Notes: a model not told the origin generated them from the letters alone. A stretch of 32,000 bases of DNA from Planctomycetota bacterium (GCA_021413705.1 JAIOPX010000146.1:49479-81478), one strand, 5' to 3'. Shown: positions 3,751 through 27,069, counted from the stretch's first letter. Numbers and translations: made by a program.

Positions 3751-4587
3751 ATGGCTCGCAAAAAGAATACCGTGACGGACGCCGTTAAGAAACTCCACAA
3801 CTCGCTTGCCGTTGCGCATTTTGTTGCATTCTCACACGATGCGTCATCAAGCCGCGACATCAAACTAGCGGAAGGGATCATCAGTGTTGGAGGTGTCGGT
3901 GCGTTGATCTCAGGAGCTGCATTCAACGGTTATGACACGAATGAATCGGATCCTGCGAAAGTGCGCATCGTGACGTATGGCGTAAAGGCAGTCCTTCGCA
4001 AGGACATTCTTCGCTTGATCGACGAAGGCAACGCTGCTGTTCAGTCAGATTCGATTGCCACTGCCTATGAGGTGATGGAGACATTCATAAAAGACTTAGC
4101 TGGCAACTTCCTGTCTTATTCCGGCAAGCACATTCCGATCGACAAGCGATTCCAAGAAAAAGCAAAGAAGTCATTTGCAAAGAACACGCCCCCATATTTT
4201 AAGGAAGTTGCAAAGGCGATGGCACGCCAGAACTGTGATGGCCTTTACAAGCTGTTTTTTAAGCACGTTGATGGGCTTGAGGAACGTGTGCGCACGTATC
4301 ATCGGGGCGATCTACATGACTCTCACCGAGCTGTCGAGGCAATTCGTCATCTGAAGACTCATGAGTTTGGGCGTTATATTCCGGCCAAAATAAAAAAGTG
4401 TCCAACAGGCGCACAACACATTGTTAAAGCGTGTGTTCGCAACAGCATCATTCACAAAACAGACTGGATACTTCCAACATTTAAGCAGGCACAAGACTTC
4501 CTCATCCGAGAAGCTGAATACGGGCAAATACTGTATCAATCTGTCAGCGAAGAACTGGGAATGAAAATTGACTACTTGCCTGGGTAA
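3751..4587 (+). CDS. Hypothetical 278-aa protein inserted between pglW and pglX; possible HEPN-type (R-H-x3-H) effector
   Basis: Clean ORF starting 12 nt after the pglW stop and ending 23 nt before the pglX start, on the same strand. It is noticeably more A/T-rich than its neighbours: single 60-nt lines I counted gave about 48% G+C here and about 58% in late pglW, which is not a window-wide calculation. C-terminal segment HRAVEAIRHLKTHEFG contains RHLKTH, matching the HEPN Rx4-6H signature with a polar residue after the Arg. I recognise no other family. Confidence 0.7.
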   Translation: MARKKNTVTDAVKKLHNSLAVAHFVAFSHDASSSRDIKLAEGIISVGGVGALISGAAFNGYDTNESDPAKVRIVTYGVKAVLRKDILRLIDEGNAAVQSDSIATAYEVMETFIKDLAGNFLSYSGKHIPIDKRFQEKAKKSFAKNTPPYFKEVAKAMARQNCDGLYKLFFKHVDGLEERVRTYHRGDLHDSHRAVEAIRHLKTHEFGRYIPAKIKKCPTGAQHIVKACVRNSIIHKTDWILPTFKQAQDFLIREAEYGQILYQSVSEELGMKIDYLPG

Positions 4588-7600: not shown

Positions 7601-8333
7601 GCCGCGGCTGGTTGCGGAACTGGTCGAATCCCAGAGTGTCCCCCTGCTGCCGATTCTCCGTTACAAGGCCAGCGGCTTGCGCAAGCGCGCCGAGTGGCAG
7701 CAGACCTGGGAATTGCAGCGTGAGGAAGATCAACTGCGCAGCCATCTCGCTGATTTGGAAGAGGAGGCCCACGCGAAGCGAGCGGAACACGACGGAGACT
7801 TGCCAAGAGACATTGAACGCATCCTTGCGTTAATCGGCAAAGATATTGCCGCTCAGAAACAGAAATGCCACGAGTTCGCGGCCGCGATACCTGTCCCGCC
7901 CAAGTACACAAGCGGTGACTTTCTCAAGAGCGACTATTGGCGCCTCCGCGGCAAACTCGACGTCCCCAAGGAACGCTGGGTCAGCTTTCCCCACTGCGAA
8001 GGCCCCGACGGCACGCTGGTCGTCGCTTGGGCCGGCTACGACCACCTGCAACTGGCCACGGCGGTCGGGCAGTACTATCAGCGCGTCAAGGACGAGTTCG
8101 GCGGCAGCGACGACCCTCGTTTGACCCCGCTCCTGGCCTGCCTGATCGAGCTGCTCCCCTGGCTCAAGCAGTGGCACAACGAAGTATCGGCCGAGTTCGG
8201 CGTCCCCATGGGCGAATACTTCGAGGGCTTCGTGCAGGAAGAAGCCCGCCAACTCGGCAAAACCCTACCGGAAATCCAATCCTGGCAGCCCCCCGCCCGC
8301 ACCAGCGGCCGCCGGCGGAGGGCCACAACATGA
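4611..8333 (+). CDS. pglX: PglX, BREX N6-adenine DNA methyltransferase
   Basis: 1240-aa ORF. SAM-binding motif I is FRMIDPACGSGHFLLGS and catalytic motif IV is VVANPPYITPKD (NPPY). Size, motif order and position after pglW fit PglX. Confidence 0.9.
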   Translation: MIDRKALLADLQDLLRQLEADLLERSESDEVPEVGEALRAEFARAQQAQRTAQNFEDWRADATTQAAAAWVLSCVFVRFLEDNRLVEPPRIAGLGDRLARARDEHELYFRKHPTETDRHYLLAAFDELARLPGAKDIFGEHNPFRELPNWLSGDAAGELLRFFQKIDANTGALVHDFTDPDWDTRFLGDLYQDLSETTRKKYALLQTPEFVEEFILDRTLDPAIEEFGLAGFRMIDPACGSGHFLLGSFRRILDRWQKKEPGTKVRDLVQKALDSIHGVDLNPYAVVIARFRLLLAAMRASNIRTLADAPAFQLNIVCGDSLLHGVGAQASLGWHEFDHVYQAEDHKELVQVLKPSHYHAVVANPPYITPKDKAMNDAYRERYSACHMKYSLSVPFMQRLFQLTVRGDGNGQGASGYVGQITANSFMKREFGKKLIEEFLPTVDLSHVIDTSGAYIPGHGTPTVILFGRNRRPISGTLRTVMGIRGEPSTPNDPAQGVVWTAITAQVDQPDSQGSFVSVCDSLRDNFHKHPWSIGGGGAAELKEELHAVATSTLAALVDSIGPPSFAGVDDMFFSTENALRRAGVEPNLIRQLISGDVVRDWVIARDIDCLVPYDNNHNLLAFDASAPWGRYVWLTKASSEGMVSFNKQTRRELREPWWSWYRWIPGRFKTPYAIVFAEVATHNHFALDRGGRVFKQTAPVIKLPADATEDDHLALLGLLNSSTACFWMKQVCFPKGTTTGDISTEKGRAEANRFAFNSTALENFPLPNWSEACRQEVIATARAITFRGEQINQLQSQQRIEELLSKVDRKLFLSLLEQDRNAIERLKREMVFLQEELDWSVYEAYGFVHGTIKTNVNDDVQQATKSERPFCADADIDASIAQSDVWKSRRQIIGAVDAIRLIETPVYKRLWAGRQGVYGLASRTVAEQQRDQLEQLLLSRLESYFDFDGRMNEPSGRTAKLGTELSSTAQIADIADGDSDFHNLGAALQGDFAFDLPRLVAELVESQSVPLLPILRYKASGLRKRAEWQQTWELQREEDQLRSHLADLEEEAHAKRAEHDGDLPRDIERILALIGKDIAAQKQKCHEFAAAIPVPPKYTSGDFLKSDYWRLRGKLDVPKERWVSFPHCEGPDGTLVVAWAGYDHLQLATAVGQYYQRVKDEFGGSDDPRLTPLLACLIELLPWLKQWHNEVSAEFGVPMGEYFEGFVQEEARQLGKTLPEIQSWQPPARTSGRRRRATT

Positions 8334-9109
8334 GGCATCCATACGTGGGTGATGTGGGTGATTTTGGCAAGTATGGATTACTTCGCGCGCTGCATCAAGA
8401 AAATGGATCACAGCGGCTTGGCGTAGTGTGGTATCTCACAGATGCTGAAGAGCATAACAAAGATGGCAAGCATGACGGCTATCTCACCACTGCGTCTGAA
8501 AAGCGCCGCGCCATTTACCGAGACTGCGACCCGGAGCTTTACGACGTTTTAAGGGCGGTACGTAAGCACCGTCAGCTCAATATCGAAATGATGGAAAACG
8601 GAAACGTTCTTCACCAATCCACGGCATTCTTCGGAACATCTTTACCGGTATTCAGGGGGAGGGTCCGCGAACAACGCGAATACAAAACTCGGTGGGAGCA
8701 ACGTGAGAAATGGCATAGCGCTGCGGTCCACTCAATGAAAAACTCGGCATGTGTTTTTACCGACCCAGATAACGGCATTCTCTTCGCCTCACGGGATTCA
8801 GTGGAACGCAGGAAGCCCTCGCATAAGCACGCCTATTGGCATGAAATTGCAGGGTATCTCTCACTGGGTATGAGTGTAGTGGCCTATCACCATCTGGGAC
8901 GACAGCGCGGAGGTCATTCCGCGTTGATCAAGGAATGCCTGAGAAAAATCGGCTATCTGGGGTTCGATGCCTGGGCGGTGCATTATCGACGTGGGACGGG
9001 GCGGGCCTTTGTGGTGATACCTGAGAAAAGCAGCGCTAAACAACTTCTTAATGGCACACGTCAATTCGTCGCGGTCTGGAAGGAGCATGCGGGCCTTGTC
9101 ACGCTTTAA
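8330..9109 (+). CDS. Hypothetical 259-aa protein translationally coupled to pglX; possible RlmJ-like Rossmann-fold protein with divergent motif IV (DPDN)
   Basis: The ATG at 8330 overlaps the pglX TGA (ATGA, 8330-8333). The track ORF 7937-9109 carries an Arg/Pro-rich N-terminal extension that lies inside pglX in another frame, so I discount that extension. N-terminus YVGDVGDFGKYGLLRAL lines up with my recollection of E. coli RlmJ HAGNHADVLKHxxL (G, N/D, D, K, H/Y, L). ACVFTDPDNGI lines up with RlmJ LIDPPYE. VVAYHHLGR and GRAFVVIPEK sit where RlmJ has YALWYPV and MIVINPPW. This alignment is by eye only. Confidence 0.7.
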   Translation: MRHPYVGDVGDFGKYGLLRALHQENGSQRLGVVWYLTDAEEHNKDGKHDGYLTTASEKRRAIYRDCDPELYDVLRAVRKHRQLNIEMMENGNVLHQSTAFFGTSLPVFRGRVREQREYKTRWEQREKWHSAAVHSMKNSACVFTDPDNGILFASRDSVERRKPSHKHAYWHEIAGYLSLGMSVVAYHHLGRQRGGHSALIKECLRKIGYLGFDAWAVHYRRGTGRAFVVIPEKSSAKQLLNGTRQFVAVWKEHAGLVTL

Positions 9110-9194
9110 TGTCGAGTATGTCTTTCGCGAATTCCCGTTGCGAGTGAAACTGAACGCGAGATGAAATCGCCTTGCCCGACACAATTTTGGAAGT

Positions 9195-9200
9195 AAGGAG
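9195..9200 (+). promoter_or_regulatory. Shine-Dalgarno (AAGGAG) for the 171-aa ORF
   Basis: AAGGAG lies 7 nt upstream of the ATG at 9208. The track's upstream start at 9172 is a TTG with no ribosome-binding site. Confidence 0.5.
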
Positions 9201-9207
9201 TACGAAA

Positions 9208-9723
9208 ATGCCAGAAATGCCATCACTATCAACTCCATCCGAGAAGAGCTTGGTCGATTTTGCTATTCTGGCACCCGTGCCTGAAGAACACCTGCTTGAC
9301 GGTGAGCCGGTAGCGGACGCTGAAGGGTTTGTCGCCTTCGGCTCCCGAAAATGGGAACTCTTTCGCGCGGTGGACAAACTACGCGAGGGCGATCCTGTCC
9401 CTGTACTCATCTACCCGTCTCACGAGCATGAGGCCGGCAAACTGACATTCAAGATCATGTGGAGCGGGTGGTATATCGGGAGCGTGGAGAGCCATGATGG
9501 ATCTCACCCTGCCGGCATGAAGCATCGCCCGCCATCGACCGAGCAATATGCACAGGACAACCTGGGGCTGTGGGCCGTCTTCTGGCACGTCGCAGGACTT
9601 AAACCTCTGCCGGAGGCAGAACATCGGCTCATTTCGTCGCTGCGAAGTTACAAAACAGGCCACTGGCGAGTGGGACAAGCGCCGAAGGGGCCGGAAATCG
9701 TGGCCAGACCTAGTTGGATCTGA
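9208..9723 (+). CDS. Hypothetical 171-aa protein (no recognisable family), immediately upstream of the GmrSD-like gene
   Basis: ORF with a good ribosome-binding site and ATG, on the same strand and packed between two other cargo genes (98-nt and 68-nt spacers). The sequence (…LIYPSHEHEAGKLTFKIMWSGWYIGSVE…FWHVAGLKPLPEAEHRLISSL…) has a mixed, globular-looking residue composition. I recognise no motif. Confidence 0.6.
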   Translation: MPEMPSLSTPSEKSLVDFAILAPVPEEHLLDGEPVADAEGFVAFGSRKWELFRAVDKLREGDPVPVLIYPSHEHEAGKLTFKIMWSGWYIGSVESHDGSHPAGMKHRPPSTEQYAQDNLGLWAVFWHVAGLKPLPEAEHRLISSLRSYKTGHWRVGQAPKGPEIVARPSWI

Positions 9724-9791
9724 AACGAAAGTGCGGCGACATAAGATTACGCCTTTTCAATTTTTGACCCGGTACCTGCCATGAGCCACAC

Positions 9792-11480
9792 ATGAAGAAC
9801 CAAAAACAGACCATACGCAAGATCGTCGGATTTCTGAACAACCCTGACGAAGACGGCGGCTTTTGGCTGCCCAACATCCAGCGTCCCTTTGTGTGGACGG
9901 AAGAGCAGATTTGCCGGCTGTTTGACTCGATTCTGCGTGAGTATCCGATCAGCACGCTGTTGGTTTGGAAAACAACGAGCAAGATTCGGCGGCGGAAGTT
10001 CATCGACAACTGGAAGCATTCACTTCGCCTCAGCGATTTCTACGCCACGGAGGATGAGCAAAAGAAGTGCTTGGTGCTTGATGGTCAGCAGCGTCTGCAA
10101 AGCCTTTTCATCGGCCTTAAGGGCAGTTTTGAGGGACGCGAATTGCATTTGGACATACTTAGCGGGGACGTTGCGGCTCCAGACGACATCAAGTACCGAT
10201 TCAAGTTCCTGGAGGCCGCCAAGGCAAAGTTCCCCTGGATTCGCTTTCGCGATCTGATGTTTACAACGAAAAAGCAGCGGCAGCTCAGCGCCGAGATCGG
10301 GGAGAATGCCGGCCGCGAGTTGGGCGAAGAAGAAGCAGACAAGATTGGTGACCACCTGAACTTGATAGACCGCACATTCAAGATGGATGAAGCCGTCGTC
10401 TACCAGGAACTCGACAGCATTGATAATCCCAAGCTCTACACCGAAGACGATGTTGTGGAAATCTTTATCCGTGCCAATTCTGGCGGCACGATTCTCGGTA
10501 AATCCGACCTCCTGTTCTCATTGCTCAGTGTGAAGTGGAACTTTGCAAACGAAAAGATGGAAGAATTGCTGGAGTCGCTAAACAGGCATGGGTTCGCATT
10601 CGACCGCGATTTCGTTCTCAAGACATGCCTCGTTGTATTTGGACAGGGAGCTCGCTACGAGGTCGATAAGTTCCGCAAGGCGGGGGTGCGAGAGGACATC
10701 GAGGGGAACTGGGACCGCGTTTCTGAATCAATCCAAGACGTGCTGGACTACCTGCGCGAAAAAACATTCATTCGATGTGATCGCGCAATTCCTTCCTACT
10801 TGGTCCTAATACCTCTCGTCTACCTGCGGTATCACTACAAAGAGGCTTGGCGAGCGGCACAGAAAGTGGATGACTATGTCGTGCGCTGTCTCCTGACCGG
10901 AGCATTCGGTGGCCAGCCGGACAATCTTATCGACGCCCTCACGAAGACGATTGCTGAATCAAGTCATTTCGACGTCAAAGCGGCCTTTGCTGCCATACGT
11001 TCCCAACAACGCTCTTTGGAGCTTACAGAGGACCGATTCTGGCAAATGGGATATGGCTCAAAGACTATCCATCTGCTTTTCAATCTTTGGTACCGTGACT
11101 TCAATCAGACACCCGCCTATGACAATAACATGCCACAGATTGATCATATATTTCCGCAGAGCGCCCTTAAGAAATTGAAGGTGATAAATCCCGAAACGGG
11201 GCGGTCGGTGATGAAATACACCAGCGACGTTCGCGATCAGCTTGCAAACTGCATGCTGCTCAGCCGCGAAGAGAACGGCTCCGGCGGAAAGTGGGCCACT
11301 CTGCCCAAGGAATGGTTTTCCAGCAAAGATTCGGACTACCTCCGTAAGCACTTGATTCCTGCGGACCCTAAATTGTGGGAAATGGATCAATTCGAGGAGT
11401 TCATTGAGGAACGAAAAAAGTTGATTGCTGACCGTTTTAAGTGGCTGTTGGCGACCTCTGCTGTTACGAGTCCCGATTGA
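9792..11480 (+). CDS. GmrSD/BrxU-like type IV (modification-dependent) restriction endonuclease, DUF262 + DUF1524
   Basis: The N-terminal DUF262/ParB-like signature is WLPNIQRPFVWTEEQICRLFDSILREYPISTLLVW, plus the LVLDGQQRLQSLF (DGQQR) motif. The C-terminal DUF1524 His-Me finger signature is IDHIFPQS … LANCMLLSREENGSGGK. 562 aa. Confidence 0.85.
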   Translation: MKNQKQTIRKIVGFLNNPDEDGGFWLPNIQRPFVWTEEQICRLFDSILREYPISTLLVWKTTSKIRRRKFIDNWKHSLRLSDFYATEDEQKKCLVLDGQQRLQSLFIGLKGSFEGRELHLDILSGDVAAPDDIKYRFKFLEAAKAKFPWIRFRDLMFTTKKQRQLSAEIGENAGRELGEEEADKIGDHLNLIDRTFKMDEAVVYQELDSIDNPKLYTEDDVVEIFIRANSGGTILGKSDLLFSLLSVKWNFANEKMEELLESLNRHGFAFDRDFVLKTCLVVFGQGARYEVDKFRKAGVREDIEGNWDRVSESIQDVLDYLREKTFIRCDRAIPSYLVLIPLVYLRYHYKEAWRAAQKVDDYVVRCLLTGAFGGQPDNLIDALTKTIAESSHFDVKAAFAAIRSQQRSLELTEDRFWQMGYGSKTIHLLFNLWYRDFNQTPAYDNNMPQIDHIFPQSALKKLKVINPETGRSVMKYTSDVRDQLANCMLLSREENGSGGKWATLPKEWFSSKDSDYLRKHLIPADPKLWEMDQFEEFIEERKKLIADRFKWLLATSAVTSPD

Positions 11481-21331: not shown

Positions 21332-21498
21332 AATCGGCAGGGTCTACCCGCCCCATCTTTGGCCGTACCTGCCAACCTGGAGTTGATCTGCTCCCACAGC
21401 TATAATTCAACACAGGGCAATGACTTTCAGTGGTCTATTTGTGGCATGTCGTCCGATACAGCCTCACGAGCCAAAGACATTGACCGAAAAGAGGCGCG

Positions 21499-22236
21499 AT
21501 GATGACGTTTACTTGCGAGGAGGATCTGCGCCAGAGTTTCCTGCGACAGGCGGACTCAGCACTATGGTGTCCTTCACCGAAGCCTGGACCGGTTCGGTCC
21601 GCAATAGAATCGACTTGTTCGGATGGACGAGCTGATTGGGTTTGGGCAACTCTGCATTGCGCGCTTTCTAGGTGTCTCGGTCAAGTTACATTCGACTTGA
21701 TGCAGCAACCTACGTGCAGTAGGATCCTCGCTGCTCTCAAAGTTAAACGAAGACAGCCAGAAGACGTACTCTATTCCGCAGCCGGTGTCAGCAGGCGAAC
21801 GTACCGTAAACTTTTGGCAGACCTTCTTAACTCAAAATTGGTGACCATGGACAAGACCGGTTTACTCGGCCTAGGTCCCACCTTTCGGATGCCCGACATC
21901 GAAATCTGTTCTTTTGAGTTTAAGTTGGAGAATTGGCGAAGGGCATTTCAACAGGCTCGGCGATACAGGAGTTTCTCACATCGTGTTTATGTCGTCATGC
22001 CGAGGAGAGGAGTCACTAGAGCGCTCCGGCATGCCGATTCCTTCCGTCGTTTCAACATCGGCTTAATACAGCACGAGTCGGATGGGACATCTGCTAGACG
22101 AATCGCATCCAGAAAGAGAACACCATCGTCTCCCGCACACCATATTCAGGCAATTGGGCTGCTTGGATCTCAACGGACATCAATTCCAGCACGTCGAGCA
22201 AAGTCTGACAAGGCACGACTCCAGCTGGCCAAATGA
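21499..22236 (+). CDS. Putative PD-(D/E)xK (RecB/Cas4-like, ExK…QxxxY) nuclease with an inserted winged-helix domain
   Basis: GAGG lies upstream of a double ATG at 21499/21502. Candidate nuclease core: N-terminal acidic helix EEDLRQSF, GRADWVWA (Asp), ICSFEFKLENW (E-x-K), then QQARRY (QxxxY) 8 residues later. About 95 residues between the Asp and ExK include a MarR-like wHTH (PTCSRILAALKVKRRQPEDVLYSAAGVSRRTYRKLLADLLNSKLV). The basic C-terminal tail overlaps the 3' end of the convergent gene by 67 nt. Confidence 0.55.
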   Translation: MMTFTCEEDLRQSFLRQADSALWCPSPKPGPVRSAIESTCSDGRADWVWATLHCALSRCLGQVTFDLMQQPTCSRILAALKVKRRQPEDVLYSAAGVSRRTYRKLLADLLNSKLVTMDKTGLLGLGPTFRMPDIEICSFEFKLENWRRAFQQARRYRSFSHRVYVVMPRRGVTRALRHADSFRRFNIGLIQHESDGTSARRIASRKRTPSSPAHHIQAIGLLGSQRTSIPARRAKSDKARLQLAK

Positions 22237-23369
22237 TCCTTGCCGGTCGAGCGCTCGAACTCAATTCCATTTCGCTCCAGAATTGTGTAGAGACCTTGCG
22301 CTTCACGTACGCGCCTCAACGTCTCTAGCGTATCTCTCCGAACACGACCCGTGAGCGACTGATCTATAGCGTGCAAGGTCTGCCAATGATGCTGTTGCGA
22401 GATGGCTTGATTCCAGGGTGAGCCTTGCGGACTACGAGCTGAGGTGATGATGCTATCAAGAGCAACGTCCGAAAGGACACTGCGAAGCCGTCCAACATCA
22501 AAGATTTCCTGCATTTCCTGCATCAAGATTGAGTTCAATAGAGGGGCACTAGAGTAGCGATCTCGTGGAGGCTGCCCTCCCGGCTTTTTTTGCAAAAAGT
22601 TTTTCCGGACGAACTGACGAAGACCTTGCGACCATCCGGTAGCGAAGGCAGCCGCTCCGGCAGCACGAAGTGGAATCCCTACGAAGTCGGTATAACCCAC
22701 CACGACGCGGAGTCCATTGACCGTGCCTAGTGCATGCACGAGGTAGAGGTAATTGGCGAGTCGAACCGGGTCAAAGTCTTGTGAATAAACTGGTTCGTGG
22801 CGGGCAGCGACGAGGTAGAAACCTTCCATGGACCAATCGTCCTGCGTGACTGTGTCCAAAAAGCGACCGATCTCATCCTCATCGGTCAATGCTTCTTCCG
22901 CGAATACAAAACTGAGAAGTAATGGAGGCGGGCTCGGCAAGCTGCCGTGATGTTCACGTGCCGCGTCCGCAAGATTTAATGCAATTTGGTACCAACGGTC
23001 TGAAAACGTCCCAAACATCACAGTCGGCGACAGGATTGCCGTCACTGGCAGGCCCGCTTGATAGTCAATCGTATCCCGAGCGATTTGACGAATCCGTCGC
23101 AATGAGAAGTCGCTTGCCGACAAACCACCCTCGAAGAAGTCGTACTCTTCTAGATACCGCATGTTTGCCGGTGTAAACGTCGCAACGTAGAGCTGAGGGT
23201 CGACCAGCAATTCGCAGCCATGATCCTCAGAAAGGGTTTCGAGGCAAGTGCGTAAATTGTCAGGCTTCTCGTTTCGAGGCGCGAATATCACGCCCTCAAT
23301 GCTGCCATCGCTCAGTCCAGTGACAATCTTGTCAGACTTGCCATGCCCGTGTTGCGCGTATACTGCCAT
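22170..23369 (-). CDS. Hypothetical 399-aa protein, operon partner of the stand-alone Ser/Thr kinase
   Basis: Clean ORF whose ATG lies 5 nt after the kinase stop codon on the same strand. The N-terminal half alternates hydrophobic strands and helices (VYAQHGHGKSDKI…IEGVIFAPRNE…ELLVDPQLY…AILSPTVMF…LLLSFVFAEE…GFYLVAARHE…VVVGYTDF), which suggests an alpha/beta, possibly barrel-like, fold. I recognise no catalytic motif. Confidence 0.7.
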   Translation of the reverse strand: MAVYAQHGHGKSDKIVTGLSDGSIEGVIFAPRNEKPDNLRTCLETLSEDHGCELLVDPQLYVATFTPANMRYLEEYDFFEGGLSASDFSLRRIRQIARDTIDYQAGLPVTAILSPTVMFGTFSDRWYQIALNLADAAREHHGSLPSPPPLLLSFVFAEEALTDEDEIGRFLDTVTQDDWSMEGFYLVAARHEPVYSQDFDPVRLANYLYLVHALGTVNGLRVVVGYTDFVGIPLRAAGAAAFATGWSQGLRQFVRKNFLQKKPGGQPPRDRYSSAPLLNSILMQEMQEIFDVGRLRSVLSDVALDSIITSARSPQGSPWNQAISQQHHWQTLHAIDQSLTGRVRRDTLETLRRVREAQGLYTILERNGIEFERSTGKDHLASWSRALSDFARRAGIDVR

Positions 23370-23374
23370 CTTGC

Positions 23375-24307
23375 TTATAGCCCTTGCAGTGCATCTATCA
23401 GCTGATCACACCGTCGATAACGAAGGTGAGGAGATTTTCCAAGCAAACGCAGAATCACATCATTTAATGCCTCAGGAATAGTCGACACCAAACTGTTTGG
23501 CGGGCTAGGCATGTGATTTGTAATTTTTGAGTAGAGCGCCGCAGAATTGTCGCCAGAACTCCAAAATGGATGTTGCCCCGTGACCAGATAATACATGGTT
23601 ACGCCGAGCGCGAACAAATCAGAACGAAAATCCAGTACGGTTCGTCGGTTGGAAAACTCAAACTGCTCCGGTGAGAAATAGGCTGGGGTGCCAACAGGTG
23701 CCGCGCTGATAGACTCGCCGTCGATGTCGAATGCGAGCCCTGCATCCAATAGCACAAAATCACCTGTACTATCTCGACGCATTATATTAGCGGGCTTGAT
23801 GTCACGGTGTATCTTGCCAAGATCCCAAAGTGATTTGATAGCAGAACCAATTTGCCTACCCAATTTTGCCACATCACTGACGCAGAGCGGTCCATTCGCA
23901 CGAAAGAGGTTGCGCAGGTCAGCGCCAGCAACATACTCTTCTGTAAAATACACGAGTTGTTGGTCGTCGACGGTGGCAAAACAAAGGCCAATGGGGCCGA
24001 GTTTAACGACATAGGGTGAATCACAATCGCGCATGGTCTCCACTTCTCTCTTCGCGCGAAGTGCTATATCCGTTGCGGAGAAGTCCTCTACCTCGGCAAA
24101 CTCACTAGTCGGCACCTTAGCGAACTTGAGTGCGTACTGTTGGTCGTCAATAGTTGTACGAAATACAAGTTTTTGACCGCCGCTTCCCACCTGCTCGGTT
24201 GCGCGAGCCTGCGGGACCAGTCGGGCAATCTGTTCGGGTGTCAAACTGGGTAGATCCGCCATTGCATGGCCTGTGCTATCTTGGAGTGGACGGCGCCAAA
24301 TGCGCAT
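23375..24307 (-). CDS. Stand-alone Hanks-type Ser/Thr protein kinase (about 295-310 aa, no accessory domain)
   Basis: Glycine loop VGSGGQKLVF, lysine in YALKFAKV, catalytic loop HRDIKPANIM, DAG (a DFG variant), GTPAYFSPEQ, DLFALGVTMYYLVTG. The start is either ATG 24307 or ATG 24262 (MADLPSL…). Confidence 0.85.
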   Translation of the reverse strand: MRIWRRPLQDSTGHAMADLPSLTPEQIARLVPQARATEQVGSGGQKLVFRTTIDDQQYALKFAKVPTSEFAEVEDFSATDIALRAKREVETMRDCDSPYVVKLGPIGLCFATVDDQQLVYFTEEYVAGADLRNLFRANGPLCVSDVAKLGRQIGSAIKSLWDLGKIHRDIKPANIMRRDSTGDFVLLDAGLAFDIDGESISAAPVGTPAYFSPEQFEFSNRRTVLDFRSDLFALGVTMYYLVTGQHPFWSSGDNSAALYSKITNHMPSPPNSLVSTIPEALNDVILRLLGKSPHLRYRRCDQLIDALQGL

Positions 24308-24736: not shown

Positions 24737-25552
24737 CTAGAATAATTGATTAAACTCGTGGATGATTTTGCTGACCACGGCCGCGATCTTGTCAAACGTC
24801 TGGATTGCCGGACGATCCCCGTCAATAGCTACGTAAGGGGTTACGTGTCCTGCAACGTCCATATTCGTCTCGACAGAGCCGGCTGGCAGTTTGGCTCGCA
24901 TGACTTCTACGCCGAGTTCCGCGCGTGGCCTGGACATGGAGCCAACCCTAGCGAATTGCTGGCAATTTCCCATGATCAGAAACTGGATCAGGTCGATTCC
25001 TTCGTGACACGTGACGGACGTTGGTATCGACAGACTAATCGGCAGGCGGTGCTTGTCCGTGCTTGCGAGGTCGCGAAGCATGGTAAGCGGGTGGAAGTAG
25101 GTGCCGACGGCAAGGTCTTCGTCAATTCGGTGGTATCCCTGATACCGCTCAATAATTGTCACATGATCCGGCGAAACTTCCCGCAGGTATCGTTTTTGGA
25201 GATCTCGAAATCGTTCGGCGTCGTCTGCAATGGGAAAGTCAATGCTAATAGGTTTCTTAATAGCACCGCCAGTGTTCAGTGAAGCAAGCTGATAAACCAA
25301 CTGGTTGAGCGCACTGATGAGGTTATGCATCATGTCGCCGACTATAATCTGACATCGCGGAAGAAAATCGCCTAGATCCGGCATGAAATTAATAAACATG
25401 ACATATTCGCCGGAATCCGAGTCGAACTTCATCCCGAGACGTGGGAGATTGTCCTGAATCTCGAAGGTATCGAGGACGAAATGCTGTAAAGAATCTCGGT
25501 GCTCTTTAGCCCGCTCAATCTTCAGCCAGCAGTTGTCTAGCGATGGTTGCAC
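24737..25552 (-). CDS. Hypothetical 271-aa protein (orphan), A/T-rich
   Basis: The track ORF runs to 25783, but its first 77 codons are Cys/Gly/Arg-rich junk-like sequence (MWGSGVTSCYYGRGFDPRPFCC…). An in-frame GTG at 25552 is preceded by GAGG with a 6-nt spacer and gives MQPSLDNCWLKIERAKEHRDSLQHF…. There is no in-frame ATG between 25783 and codon 110. Motifs noted: IIVGDMMHNLISALNQLVYQL and LASTDKHRLP. No family assigned. Confidence 0.6.
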   Translation of the reverse strand: MQPSLDNCWLKIERAKEHRDSLQHFVLDTFEIQDNLPRLGMKFDSDSGEYVMFINFMPDLGDFLPRCQIIVGDMMHNLISALNQLVYQLASLNTGGAIKKPISIDFPIADDAERFRDLQKRYLREVSPDHVTIIERYQGYHRIDEDLAVGTYFHPLTMLRDLASTDKHRLPISLSIPTSVTCHEGIDLIQFLIMGNCQQFARVGSMSRPRAELGVEVMRAKLPAGSVETNMDVAGHVTPYVAIDGDRPAIQTFDKIAAVVSKIIHEFNQLF

Positions 25553-26142
25553 TGGAAACCTCACAATGGAAAAGCGGTCGTATTGCCTATGCGAAAGTGT
25601 TGCCTGCCGGCCGGATGCCCGCGCCCCCCCGTTCCGGCTGCCGTTACTCTCGATCGTCCTGTCTGACTGTGAAAACAGCAGAAAGCAAAAATAAATCTTT
25701 GCCCCCCAATGAGGAGGGCAGCAAAATGGTCTTGGATCAAAACCTCTTCCGTAGTAACAACTTGTGACGCCACTCCCCCACACGCTATCCGCTGTGGGAG
25801 GAAATTGGAAGCGGCCGAGGCCAAATGGCCGCGCCAGCAGTTGACGATCCTGATTGCATCGAATAACTTTCGATCGGCAACACTGAAGACGATGGTCGAC
25901 ACCAGGCTACGCCTCGTAGCCAGCGCTTAGTATGAGCGCCTTCTTTACGGCCGGGCTGGCCGCCGCCGACCATTGCTTATTGCCGGCGAGCCAAATAGGT
26001 CGCCGCTCCCAGGATGGGTTCCACTTTGCTTTCACCGGCACGGTGCCCGTGTCGCAGTTTTTCACCCAGTTTTACTGATTGAGAGCGGTACCGTCCTGGA
26101 CTTCACATCGCATTGGTGTACAGGATTACTGCCAATCAGCAA

Positions 26143-26147
26143 AGGAG
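26143..26147 (+). promoter_or_regulatory. Shine-Dalgarno (AGGAG) for the DUF5131 gene
   Basis: AGGAG lies 7 nt upstream of the ATG at 26155. Confidence 0.5.
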
Positions 26148-26154
26148 AAGCGTA

Positions 26155-27069
26155 ATGTCCATACACACCACCATTCAGTGGACCGATGGCACTGTGAACC
26201 CCACTATGGGTTGCGACGGCTGCCCCCTGTGGAATCGGCTTAACAAGCGCTGTTACGCCGGCAAAACTACACGACGGTTTGGCGGCACGAACCCGGGTCT
26301 CGCAAAGAACTTTGATGTCGTCGAGCTGGCACCAGGGCGAATGGCAATGGCAACTTGTTGGCGCGACCTTTCTGGTACAGCCCGACGTGACAAACCGTGG
26401 CTAAACGATCTGCCTCGCCTCATTTTTGTTTCGGACATGTCAGACGCGCTTTCGCAATCAGTCACGTTCGGGTACCTTCGCCAAGAAATCATCGAGCAGG
26501 TTAGCAGCGAATTGGGCCGCCGTCACCAATGGCAGTGGTTGACCAAGCGACCGGCCCGTATGGCCCGCTTCTCTCGCTGGCTGACGCAGCAAGGGGTAGA
26601 TTGGCCAACCAATCTTTGGGCAGGCACCAGCATAATGACACAGTCCATGACGAAGGGAATCAATCATCTTCTTAATGTGGGCGACGAACGCACTATTCGT
26701 TTTCTTTCCGTCGAGCCGCAGTGGGAGTCGATCGACCTTAGCCAATGGTTGCCTCAACTCGATTGGGTGATCCAGGGCGGAGAATCCGGGGCCGTCGACC
26801 ACCCGTTTGATCTGGCCTGGGCAGATGAATTGTTTGAACAGTGTGCTGAGTCCGGTGTGGCATACTTCTTGAAGCAACTCGGTACCTGCGTCCGTGAGGA
26901 TGGTGAACGTCTGCGGTTTGCGGATCGCCACGGTGGCGATTGGTCCCAATGGCCGCGGCGGCTTCGTGTGCGTCAAATGCCTATCAACGCAACCACCAAA
27001 CACCGTGGAGTGCGTGGGCGACACGTTGACGCTGACCTGCGTCGCCCAGCTTTCAACTTGGCGAAATAG
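26155..27069 (+). CDS. DUF5131 (phage Gp37/Gp68 family) protein
   Basis: The N-terminus IQWTDGTVNPTMGCDGCPLW…RCYAG matches the family hallmark (I/E)WTDxTWNPxxGC…C…CYA. FVSDMSD, FLSVEPQ and WVIQGGESG are also typical. I chose the ATG at 26155 (with a ribosome-binding site) over the track start at 26113. Confidence 0.85.
   Translation: MSIHTTIQWTDGTVNPTMGCDGCPLWNRLNKRCYAGKTTRRFGGTNPGLAKNFDVVELAPGRMAMATCWRDLSGTARRDKPWLNDLPRLIFVSDMSDALSQSVTFGYLRQEIIEQVSSELGRRHQWQWLTKRPARMARFSRWLTQQGVDWPTNLWAGTSIMTQSMTKGINHLLNVGDERTIRFLSVEPQWESIDLSQWLPQLDWVIQGGESGAVDHPFDLAWADELFEQCAESGVAYFLKQLGTCVREDGERLRFADRHGGDWSQWPRRLRVRQMPINATTKHRGVRGRHVDADLRRPAFNLAK

Follow-up and report, generated by a model that had tools for sequence, protein, structure and literature searches.

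Three genes lying 3' of a type 2 BREX (bacteriophage exclusion) locus in a Planctomycetota bacterium form a cassette encoding a stand-alone Ser/Thr protein kinase, a TIM-barrel partner protein and a putative nuclease of the PD-(D/E)xK type, and the same triad recurs at over 100 loci spread across seven phyla, one of them on an archaeal plasmid, its three genes staying together down to about 20% identity. The copy described here is contained in a 32,000-nucleotide (nt) stretch (GCA_021413705.1, JAIOPX010000146.1:49479-81478), referred to below as the window and numbered from its first nucleotide. That the three genes are a functional unit is, in our judgement, close to certain. It is probable that this unit is an immune or conflict system, and on balance we favour the view that the window holds one copy of a self-contained, mobile three-gene conflict cassette, most likely an anti-phage or anti-mobile genetic element (MGE) immune module. 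The genes and their junctions are as follows (aa, amino acids).

21499..22236, plus strand: third gene, 245 aa, putative PD-(D/E)xK effector nuclease with a winged-helix insert
22170..22236: convergent 3' overlap of the partner gene and the third gene, 67 nt
22170..23369, minus strand: partner gene, 399 aa, TIM barrel with a helical cap, family unannotated
23370..23374, minus strand: kinase-partner junction, 5 nt, operonic coupling
23375..24307, minus strand: kinase gene, Hanks-type Ser/Thr protein kinase, 310 aa counted from ATG 24307

A sequence-only reading of the window had proposed the kinase and the 399-aa open reading frame (ORF) as a two-gene candidate defence system. Both genes are where it placed them, on the minus strand and 5 nt apart, and the low-G+C character that it described for this stretch is borne out by a G+C content of 0.52 over the cassette versus about 0.59-0.62 in the adjoining type 2 BREX locus. 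It overlooked the putative nuclease gene, an equally conserved third component, and with it the likely effector, so its gene count was wrong; the part of the proposal that stands is that of a candidate new defence system, since the cassette is accessory and mobile and recurs at BREX loci of types 1 and 2, beside restriction-modification (R-M) genes with GmrSD, and beside MmeI with OLD/UvrD.

Kinase-based immunity is known from few prokaryotic cases, most of them poorly understood (PglW, Stk2, PD-T4-6, MADS). The cassette offers a compact, genetically tractable three-gene version whose parts are separable and whose natural fusions show which parts interact, and the family is sizeable (about 1,165 partner representatives at 50% identity from a profile search) and extends over seven or more phyla, haloarchaea among them. 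Should it prove to be a defence system, it would bring a new TIM-barrel family into the immune repertoire, give a handle on a phosphorylation-gated nuclease, and help to explain the recruitment of embedded auxiliary modules by BREX loci; should it prove to be an MGE addiction module, control by a kinase would make it an unusual one.

Conservation of the three-gene unit

Loci were collected from species-representative genomes (26 loci, from Planctomycetota, Acidobacteriota and Verrucomicrobiota), from metagenomes (79 loci) and from annotated plasmids, and synteny was scored by tblastn and profile searches. In the first distant loci inspected (Novipirellula aureliae, a Terracidiphilus metagenome-assembled genome and a metagenome lineage), the kinase-partner pair is followed by a convergent gene of ~230 aa, 39-40% identical to the third ORF of the window. 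In all 29 of the first loci collected that have an intact partner gene, the partner is immediately preceded by the kinase and immediately followed by the third gene, and the same three-gene arrangement is present in every metagenome locus with room for it, down to partner identities of 23-30%. Wherever a gene seems to be missing, the contig ends or the copy is visibly decayed (L031, L112; collected loci carry L numbers). The neighbourhood of kinase and partner, whose conservation the sequence-only reading had proposed to test, thus holds in every locus with enough sequence and across the seven phyla, with fusion of the two genes at least twice.

The junctions are similarly tight. Kinase and partner genes in the relatives are separated by 0-45 nt, typically 0-12, or share a 4-nt overlap of the ATGA type, and the partner and third genes converge with an overlap or abutment of ~0-80 nt in 28 of the 30 main-clade genome loci. 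The 67-nt overlap of the window copy is unusually long because of a C-terminal extension of its third protein. In other clades the third gene is co-directional (L029, L080, L115, L117, L126, L127), so the convergent overlap is common and not obligatory.

Gene order varies while membership is constant, with the orders kinase>partner<third, kinase>partner>third (L029 and L080) and third>kinase>partner (plasmids of Polaromonas, the archaeon Natribaculum, and Bacillus). Plasmid-borne triads come from Pseudomonadota (Polaromonas pPNAP03, 148.5-150.9 kb), Bacillota (Priestia, Bacillus mycoides NZ_CP128131.1 at 65.2-67.9 kb, B. bombysepticus), Actinomycetota (Dietzia, Kocuria) and a haloarchaeon (Natribaculum). 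Kinase and partner are fused into one chain in Priestia megaterium (677 aa, L116 4855-6888, plasmid NZ_CP140272.1) and in Kocuria rosea (675-696 aa, L128 3896-5986, plasmid NZ_CP127859.1); the two fusions are independent, belong to different phyla, and each keeps its convergent third gene. The Kocuria third gene (L128 5993-6721) is not listed in the gene table of the plasmid collection, which is itself incomplete. Together with the translational coupling of the two genes, the fusions imply a physical or functional complex of kinase and partner.

The three proteins also diverge in parallel. Over 47 unique loci, their pairwise-distance matrices correlate at r = 0.953, 0.928 and 0.922, the third protein correlating with the other two at r 0.92-0.93. 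When 443 flanking ORFs of 46 non-redundant loci were compared all against all, no fourth gene recurred, and the two candidates tried from the window, a 348-aa orphan and a DUF5131 gene, were rejected because neither accompanies the cassette elsewhere; the orphan is never beside it in other loci. Co-evolution, synteny and the lack of a recurrent fourth gene together define the unit as a self-contained triad.

Decayed copies were seen in L112 (10001-11856, kinase lost and partner N-truncated, near a terminase gene), L031 (4954-6293, partner truncated) and L126 (4721-5908, a B. bombysepticus plasmid, partner split into two ORFs). The cassette is thus liable to loss or pseudogenisation, a typical trait of accessory conflict genes.

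The kinase

The Pfam Pkinase domain (PF00069) spans residues 37-298 of the kinase (E 3.7e-32, 112 bits against a cut-off of 31.7) and leaves no place for an additional domain; in agreement with the sequence-only reading, the protein lacks a sensor or anchor domain, and its translation holds all five of the motifs quoted there (GSGGQKLVF, ALK, HRDIKPANIM, DAG and TPAYFSPE). It has the full domain of a Hanks-type Ser/Thr kinase, with G-loop, VAIK Lys, αC Glu, HRDxKxxN, DxG and APE elements. Within the cassette family, G43, K61, E88, H167-R168-D169, K171, N174, D188, G190 and T207 are conserved in 48 of 48 sequences and P213-E214 in 47 of 48. With this intact motif set, the kinase is most likely catalytically competent.

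The true start is probably ATG 24262, giving 295 aa, which is preferred because homologues begin there; the NCBI call (P0390, 289 aa from TTG 24244) drops the conserved L19-P20. The 120 closest database relatives are all single-domain proteins of 289-333 aa, encoded on contigs shared with partner homologues, and the kinase thus belongs to a dedicated clade. It is not a copy of the kinase of PglW in the same window, with which it shares only 32% identity over 126 aa.

The TIM-barrel partner

The AlphaFold2 (AF2) model of the partner, built from a 53-sequence alignment, is of high confidence (predicted local distance difference test, pLDDT, 94; predicted template-modelling score, pTM, 0.93) and predicts an eight-stranded β/α barrel (~residues 1-282) followed by a helical C-terminal cap (283-399), much as the sequence-only reading had guessed from the repeated β-α pattern and helical C-terminal third. 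Both the order of secondary structures in the model and the Foldseek matches identify a TIM (β/α)8 barrel. The Foldseek search, which that reading had suggested, returned generic TIM barrels only from PDB and BFVD (E 5e-5 to 1e-3, query template-modelling (TM) score at most 0.47), and the significant matches that can be named are TIM-barrel enzymes: DHQase I, pyruvate kinase, GH10/GH5/GH53, TGT and KDO8PS.

The family was not recognised by the sequence-only reading, and it is in fact unannotated: no Pfam, NCBIfam or PADLOC family matches the window partner, and no Pfam or NCBIfam family matches any of the 71 members tested (53 plus 18 distant ones). Among the 150 best-scoring representatives of the profile search, nearly all are single-domain proteins of ~395 aa or fragments. 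Polar residues that are at least 90% conserved in the main clade (K11, R32/E34, D57-P58-Q59, Q128, E158, R190/Y195, D228, R251) lie on the catalytic face and occupy every β-α loop of the barrel; further conserved residues lie in the cap (R271/Y272, D305, H327/H328, H379). In the most divergent partners, the residues that stay invariant are D57-P58, P115, G238 and G245. The basic and acidic pocket on the C-terminal face of the barrel suggests an anionic ligand, e.g. a nucleotide or nucleic acid, and the partner probably binds the kinase as a sensing or enzymatic subunit.

Two other assignments were tried and rejected. An HxH metal site of the TatD/amidohydrolase type at 'QHGHGK', after strand 1, is discounted by the drift of H7 and H9 to V/Q/N/I and Y/F in distant partners. 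A companion 'sce7725/beta protein' family found no support in Pfam or NCBIfam among the 53 and 18 members or in the literature.

The putative nuclease

The third protein is most likely the effector of the cassette and a putative nuclease. Its AF2 model (pLDDT 91.6) has the topology α-β-β-[wHTH]-β-α-β, the winged helix-turn-helix (wHTH) being predicted as an insert between strands 2 and 3 (~residues 62-125). G43, D46, E140, K142 and Q152 are conserved in 48 of 48 sequences, and E7 and Y156 in 46 of 48. In the model, E7 is on helix 1 (residues 7-17), D46 on strand 2 (45-52), E140-x-K142 on strand 3 (134-141), and Q152 and Y156 on the next helix (146-158). From sequence, this residue pattern reads as a complete PD-(D/E)xK signature, and the predicted positions fit the fold.

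Pfam wHTH families match 45 of 56 third-protein members. The nuclease motifs stay invariant when the insert is removed and natural short homologues are added; these short proteins (169-190 aa; L115 4697-5206, L086 3147-3680, L091 2799-3374, L105 1690-2211) keep E...D...ExK...Q without the winged-helix insert, and the nuclease core is thus the indispensable part. The NCBIfam family sce7726_fam (NF033832) matches 31 of 56 members over the ExK...Q region (best E 1.5e-5); the window protein scores 13 bits (E 0.073), short of the curated cut-off of 70 bits, and the third protein is thereby a remote relative of the sce7726 family and not a member. Isolated weak matches were to McrBC, MmcB-like and NucS_C models.

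The window protein carries a basic C-terminal extension (…RRAKSDKARLQLAK) of ~16 residues (~230-245, window 22186-22236). The tail (residues 233-245) is predicted to be disordered (pLDDT below 50), and the extension is absent from most homologues.

Genomic contexts of the cassette

The cassette is accessory and horizontally mobile. In the window it lies 3' of a type 2 BREX locus, and in two type 1 BREX loci, which also contain BrxC and BrxL, the triad is embedded between pglX and pglZ (L020, 9099-11918; L024, 9099-11887), with the same pglX/pglZ-triad junctions visible on two short contigs (L076 and L078). The triad proteins of L020 and L024 share 77-85% identity and their PglX and PglZ only 60-66%, which suggests long retention, or replacement, of the triad within the BREX operon. 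The BrxL of L024 is apparently split into two ORFs. BREX adjacency or embedding is confined to the window, these four loci and possibly L111, most loci being without BREX genes.

Other copies are found beside a DUF499 ATPase, Prok-E2/ThiF genes and an HTH + M78 pair (L111), beside an MmeI-type R-M enzyme with OLD and UvrD (L001), and on an integrative and conjugative element (ICE) between a TrwC relaxase and HsdMSR (type I R-M) with GmrSD (L119). Plasmid or integrative backbones carry the cassette in L123 (Rep/ParAB/ArdC), L124 (integrase), L070 and eight plasmids (including L115-L118 and L126-L128), and in L114 and L112 it lies in orphan-rich or prophage-like islands.

Directly upstream of the kinase, a pair of HTH_3 (XRE) and Peptidase_M78 (ImmA/IrrE-type) genes, or M78 alone, occurs in L111 (6340-7546), L032 (583-1982) and L113 (8027-8770), and may be a regulatory add-on. 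On Acinetobacter plasmids, immA/irrE has been reported as a neighbour of sce7726-family genes (bioRxiv 10.1101/2020.10.08.331108).

Comparison with known systems

Literature searches by accession and by the kinase/TIM-barrel/restriction endonuclease (REase) architecture found no description of the triad. As judged by sequence, the partner and the third protein fall in no PADLOC, Pfam or curated NCBIfam family, leaving two of the three families unannotated.

The closest likeness is to PglW. In PglW and DndF a single chain holds a NERD-REase, a Ser/Thr kinase, wHTHs and a sensor, and both have been proposed as sensory hubs with backup suicidal effectors (PMC12839542). The cassette shares this domain vocabulary, split over three genes: like PglW it combines a REase of the PD-(D/E)xK clan (putative in the cassette) with a Ser/Thr kinase that is active, DNA-binding wHTHs and a further domain of sensor type, and the cassette sits in and beside BREX loci. 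PglW is, in contrast, one polypeptide of 1400-1600 aa whose nuclease is of the NERD type and which has both a pseudokinase and a kinase, three wHTHs and no TIM-barrel partner, whereas the cassette has one kinase domain and a putative sce7726-like nuclease in separate genes and occurs mostly without BREX. BREX loci routinely host embedded auxiliary nuclease modules, among which the triad was not described (PMC12839542); neither the partner nor the third protein matches a BREX core component in PADLOC.

The kinase matches PADLOC models of PD-T4-6 at E 2.4e-42, and both are kinase-based candidate or validated defences. PD-T4-6 is, however, a single gene, whereas the cassette is obligately three genes, two of whose products have no PADLOC model. 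The models concerned (PDLC04039-04064) score any Hanks kinase domain highly, including PglW (6e-50) and ordinary Planctomycete kinases in the flanks (unrelated kinases reaching 6e-90). An assignment of the kinase to PD-T4-6 or mad6 was accordingly rejected as a generic domain match, and a PD-T4-6 call alone is no evidence for a defence kinase. A kinase gene was flagged as PD-T4-6 by PADLOC in the S. thermophilus genomes of PMC11514479. Similarly, the mad6 model of MADS matches the kinase domain at 3e-37, but the NCBIfam MAD6 equivalog score is 72 against a cut-off of 460.

With Stk2, the TerY-P triad and Mad6 the cassette has in common a Hanks-type kinase, which in those systems serves phage defence. 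In contrast to the TerY-P triad, Pfam scans found no vWA/TerY or PP2C phosphatase domain in the cassette proteins, and none is encoded among the recurrent neighbours in the 46 non-redundant loci. The sce7726 family (NF033832) resembles the third protein by remote homology over the nuclease core and is annotated on plasmids and strain-specific islands, but its 184-position model would not span the wHTH insert, and it is functionally uncharacterised, so the link gives no mechanism.

An experimental precedent for a kinase-gated nuclease in a three-gene immune or toxin-antitoxin (TA) locus is CapK/CapS/VapC (PMC13373217). The concept is alike, in that a cue of damage or infection is sensed by a kinase, which phosphorylates a partner that binds DNA; one variant, a three-gene locus, activates a nuclease in this way. 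The protein families are unrelated: CapK/CapS/VapC has a kinase of the GHKL anti-sigma type, a STAS substrate and a PIN/VapC RNase, the cassette a Hanks kinase, a TIM-barrel protein and a PD-(D/E)xK protein.

Proposed mechanism and alternative explanations

We infer a physical complex, nuclease activity, a direction of signalling and an immune function for the cassette. A complex of kinase and barrel would detect an infection- or invasion-linked cue, the barrel acting as the sensing or enzymatic subunit of the kinase, possibly by binding something anionic, for example a nucleotide or nucleic acid. Phosphorylation of the nuclease and/or host proteins by the kinase would then turn on DNA cleavage or an abortive response, with the third protein as a DNA-directed effector acting through its PD-(D/E)xK core, usually aided by the winged-helix insert. 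This specific phosphorylation-gated nuclease mechanism is tentative. Equally tentatively, the cassette might be a 'split PglW', a new class of phospho-signalling immunity in which a TIM-barrel sensor or enzyme and a kinase read a nucleotide or nucleic-acid cue and license a restriction-fold nuclease. If that were true, its repeated capture in BREX operons would represent a plug-in backup effector layer for BREX, of a class spanning Bacteria and Archaea.

Several points weigh against an immune module of this kind. Many copies, lacking any defence neighbour, lie between housekeeping genes (e.g. the insertions in L003/L055, L120 and L121) or on the backbone of a plasmid; this makes a role in addiction or MGE conflict inseparable in silico from anti-phage defence, and the anti-phage role is suggested by genomic context. 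A bulk PADLOC scan of 101 flank ORFs was swamped by redundant generic kinase and BrxL models and is unusable as an enrichment statistic. The cassette has no match in IMG/VR or in GenBank phages, which is neutral for defence and gives no phage-side clue; a phage origin was rejected on the same result. Outside the main clade, D57-P58 are the sole invariant residues of the polar pocket of the partner, so its conservation establishes neither enzymatic activity nor sensing as its role. The partner evolves about as slowly as the kinase (mean identities 0.50 and 0.52), unlike typical fast-evolving phage sensors. Finally, Foldseek of the third protein matched its wHTH insert only, and the profile of its core has no sequence relative in PDB; the nuclease fold is thus strongly inferred from motifs, predicted topology and a remote hidden Markov model link.

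Of the alternatives, addiction or competition between MGEs fares best and is nevertheless unlikely. Here the nuclease would be a toxin restrained by the kinase-barrel pair, in the manner of a TA module, and the cassette would stabilise plasmids and ICEs or exclude rivals. Many copies are indeed on plasmids, ICEs and integrative elements (Polaromonas, Priestia, Dietzia, Kocuria, Bacillus, Natribaculum; L119, L123, L124), TA modules adjoin the cassette in L113 and L121, the compact layout with convergent overlapping 3' ends would suit tight stoichiometric control, and the decayed copies in L112, L031 and L126 are in keeping with it. However, no antitoxin-like small labile protein is evident in the cassette, BREX embedding and adjacency to R-M, GmrSD and OLD point more specifically to immunity, and TA and defence roles are compatible with each other.

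Improbable as well is a regulator of adjoining immune operons, in which the third protein would be a wHTH repressor under phospho-control by the kinase-barrel complex, as with BrxR, CapH/CapP or CapK/CapS. This explanation draws on the wHTH in 45/56 third proteins, on the abutment of the third gene to defence operons in the window, L111, L001 and L119, on the HTH and Peptidase_M78 regulators directly upstream in L111, L032 and L113, and on kinase-repressor pairs known upstream of immune operons (PMC13373217). The flanks are, however, wholly variable and often housekeeping, and several lineages lack the wHTH while all of them keep the PD-(D/E)xK residues invariant, the reverse of the pattern of a pure repressor.

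A modification-dependent system resembling R-M is a more distant prospect, the barrel being a modifier of DNA or nucleotides (by base exchange of the DpdA/TGT kind or otherwise) that marks self, the nuclease restricting unmarked DNA and the kinase regulating the balance between them. In two libraries, tRNA-guanine transglycosylases (TGTs) ranked at or near the top by TM score among otherwise generic TIM-barrel matches (QTRT1/2, 9hn7_A, 0.47/0.49; a phage queuine tRNA-ribosyltransferase, target-normalised TM 0.52), the conserved basic and acidic pocket would suit a nucleic-acid or nucleotide substrate, and the slow evolution of the partner is enzyme-like. Yet any TIM barrel could yield TM scores below 0.5, and the pocket residues vary in distant partners. 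The identification of the partner as TGT/DpdA was rejected, the likeness being at the level of the fold only: hhalign of the partner profile against E. coli Tgt gave a probability of 0.15%, no partner member tested has a TGT match in Pfam or NCBIfam, and in place of the C-terminal Zn-binding CxCxxC...H of TGTs there is an all-helical region, with no Cys among the columns at least 90% conserved.

Least of all can the pair be a kinase-partner system with an incidental 245-aa ORF, or a housekeeping enzyme with a kinase regulator, readings that synteny effectively refutes: kinase and partner are operonic and sometimes fused, but the third gene is in every complete locus, co-evolves with both and has invariant catalytic residues, and a patchy distribution over seven phyla, plasmid carriage, variable flanks and atypical G+C are incompatible with the housekeeping role that the sequence-only reading had held up as its counter-case.

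The BREX neighbourhood and other genes in the window

The upstream ~21 kb of the window is occupied by the type 2 BREX locus, encoding PglW, PglX, PglY/BrxC, PglZ, BrxD and BrxHI, all matched by PADLOC at E ~0 to 1e-206; the third gene of the cassette begins 167 nt after brxHI. An apparent lack of the NERD domain in PglW was dismissed as a window-edge artefact, since the PglW ORF is open to base 1. Between PglW and PglX, a 278-aa ORF (3751-4587) without a PADLOC match may be an uncharacterised accessory gene of type 2 BREX. Three extra ORFs split the locus between pglX and pglY (7937-11480), one of ~260-390 aa that overlaps the end of pglX, one of 183 aa (9172-9723) and one of 562 aa (9792-11480). 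The 562-aa protein matches the PADLOC candidate HEC-05 (1.8e-105) and, by this match, is a further example of a candidate defence gene inside BREX.

Searches for promoters, terminators, tRNAs, Rfam families and flanking repeats gave nothing informative. A 15-nt imperfect inverted repeat (87% complementary, 21386-21400 and 25791-25805) brackets the low-G+C segment in which the triad and the 348-aa orphan lie; a repeat this short may have arisen by chance. The orphan (24737-25783, minus strand) lies upstream of the kinase in the same low-G+C stretch and has no match in Pfam, PADLOC, NCBIfam or the plasmid collection. It is followed by the DUF5131 gene (26113-27069, plus strand; phage Gp37/Gp68-type), whose product matches the PADLOC candidates PDC-M41B/PDC-M30B at ~1e-38 and which is accordingly an additional candidate-defence gene of the same island. 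Beyond it lie genes for YaiI, a SagB-type dehydrogenase and DinB.

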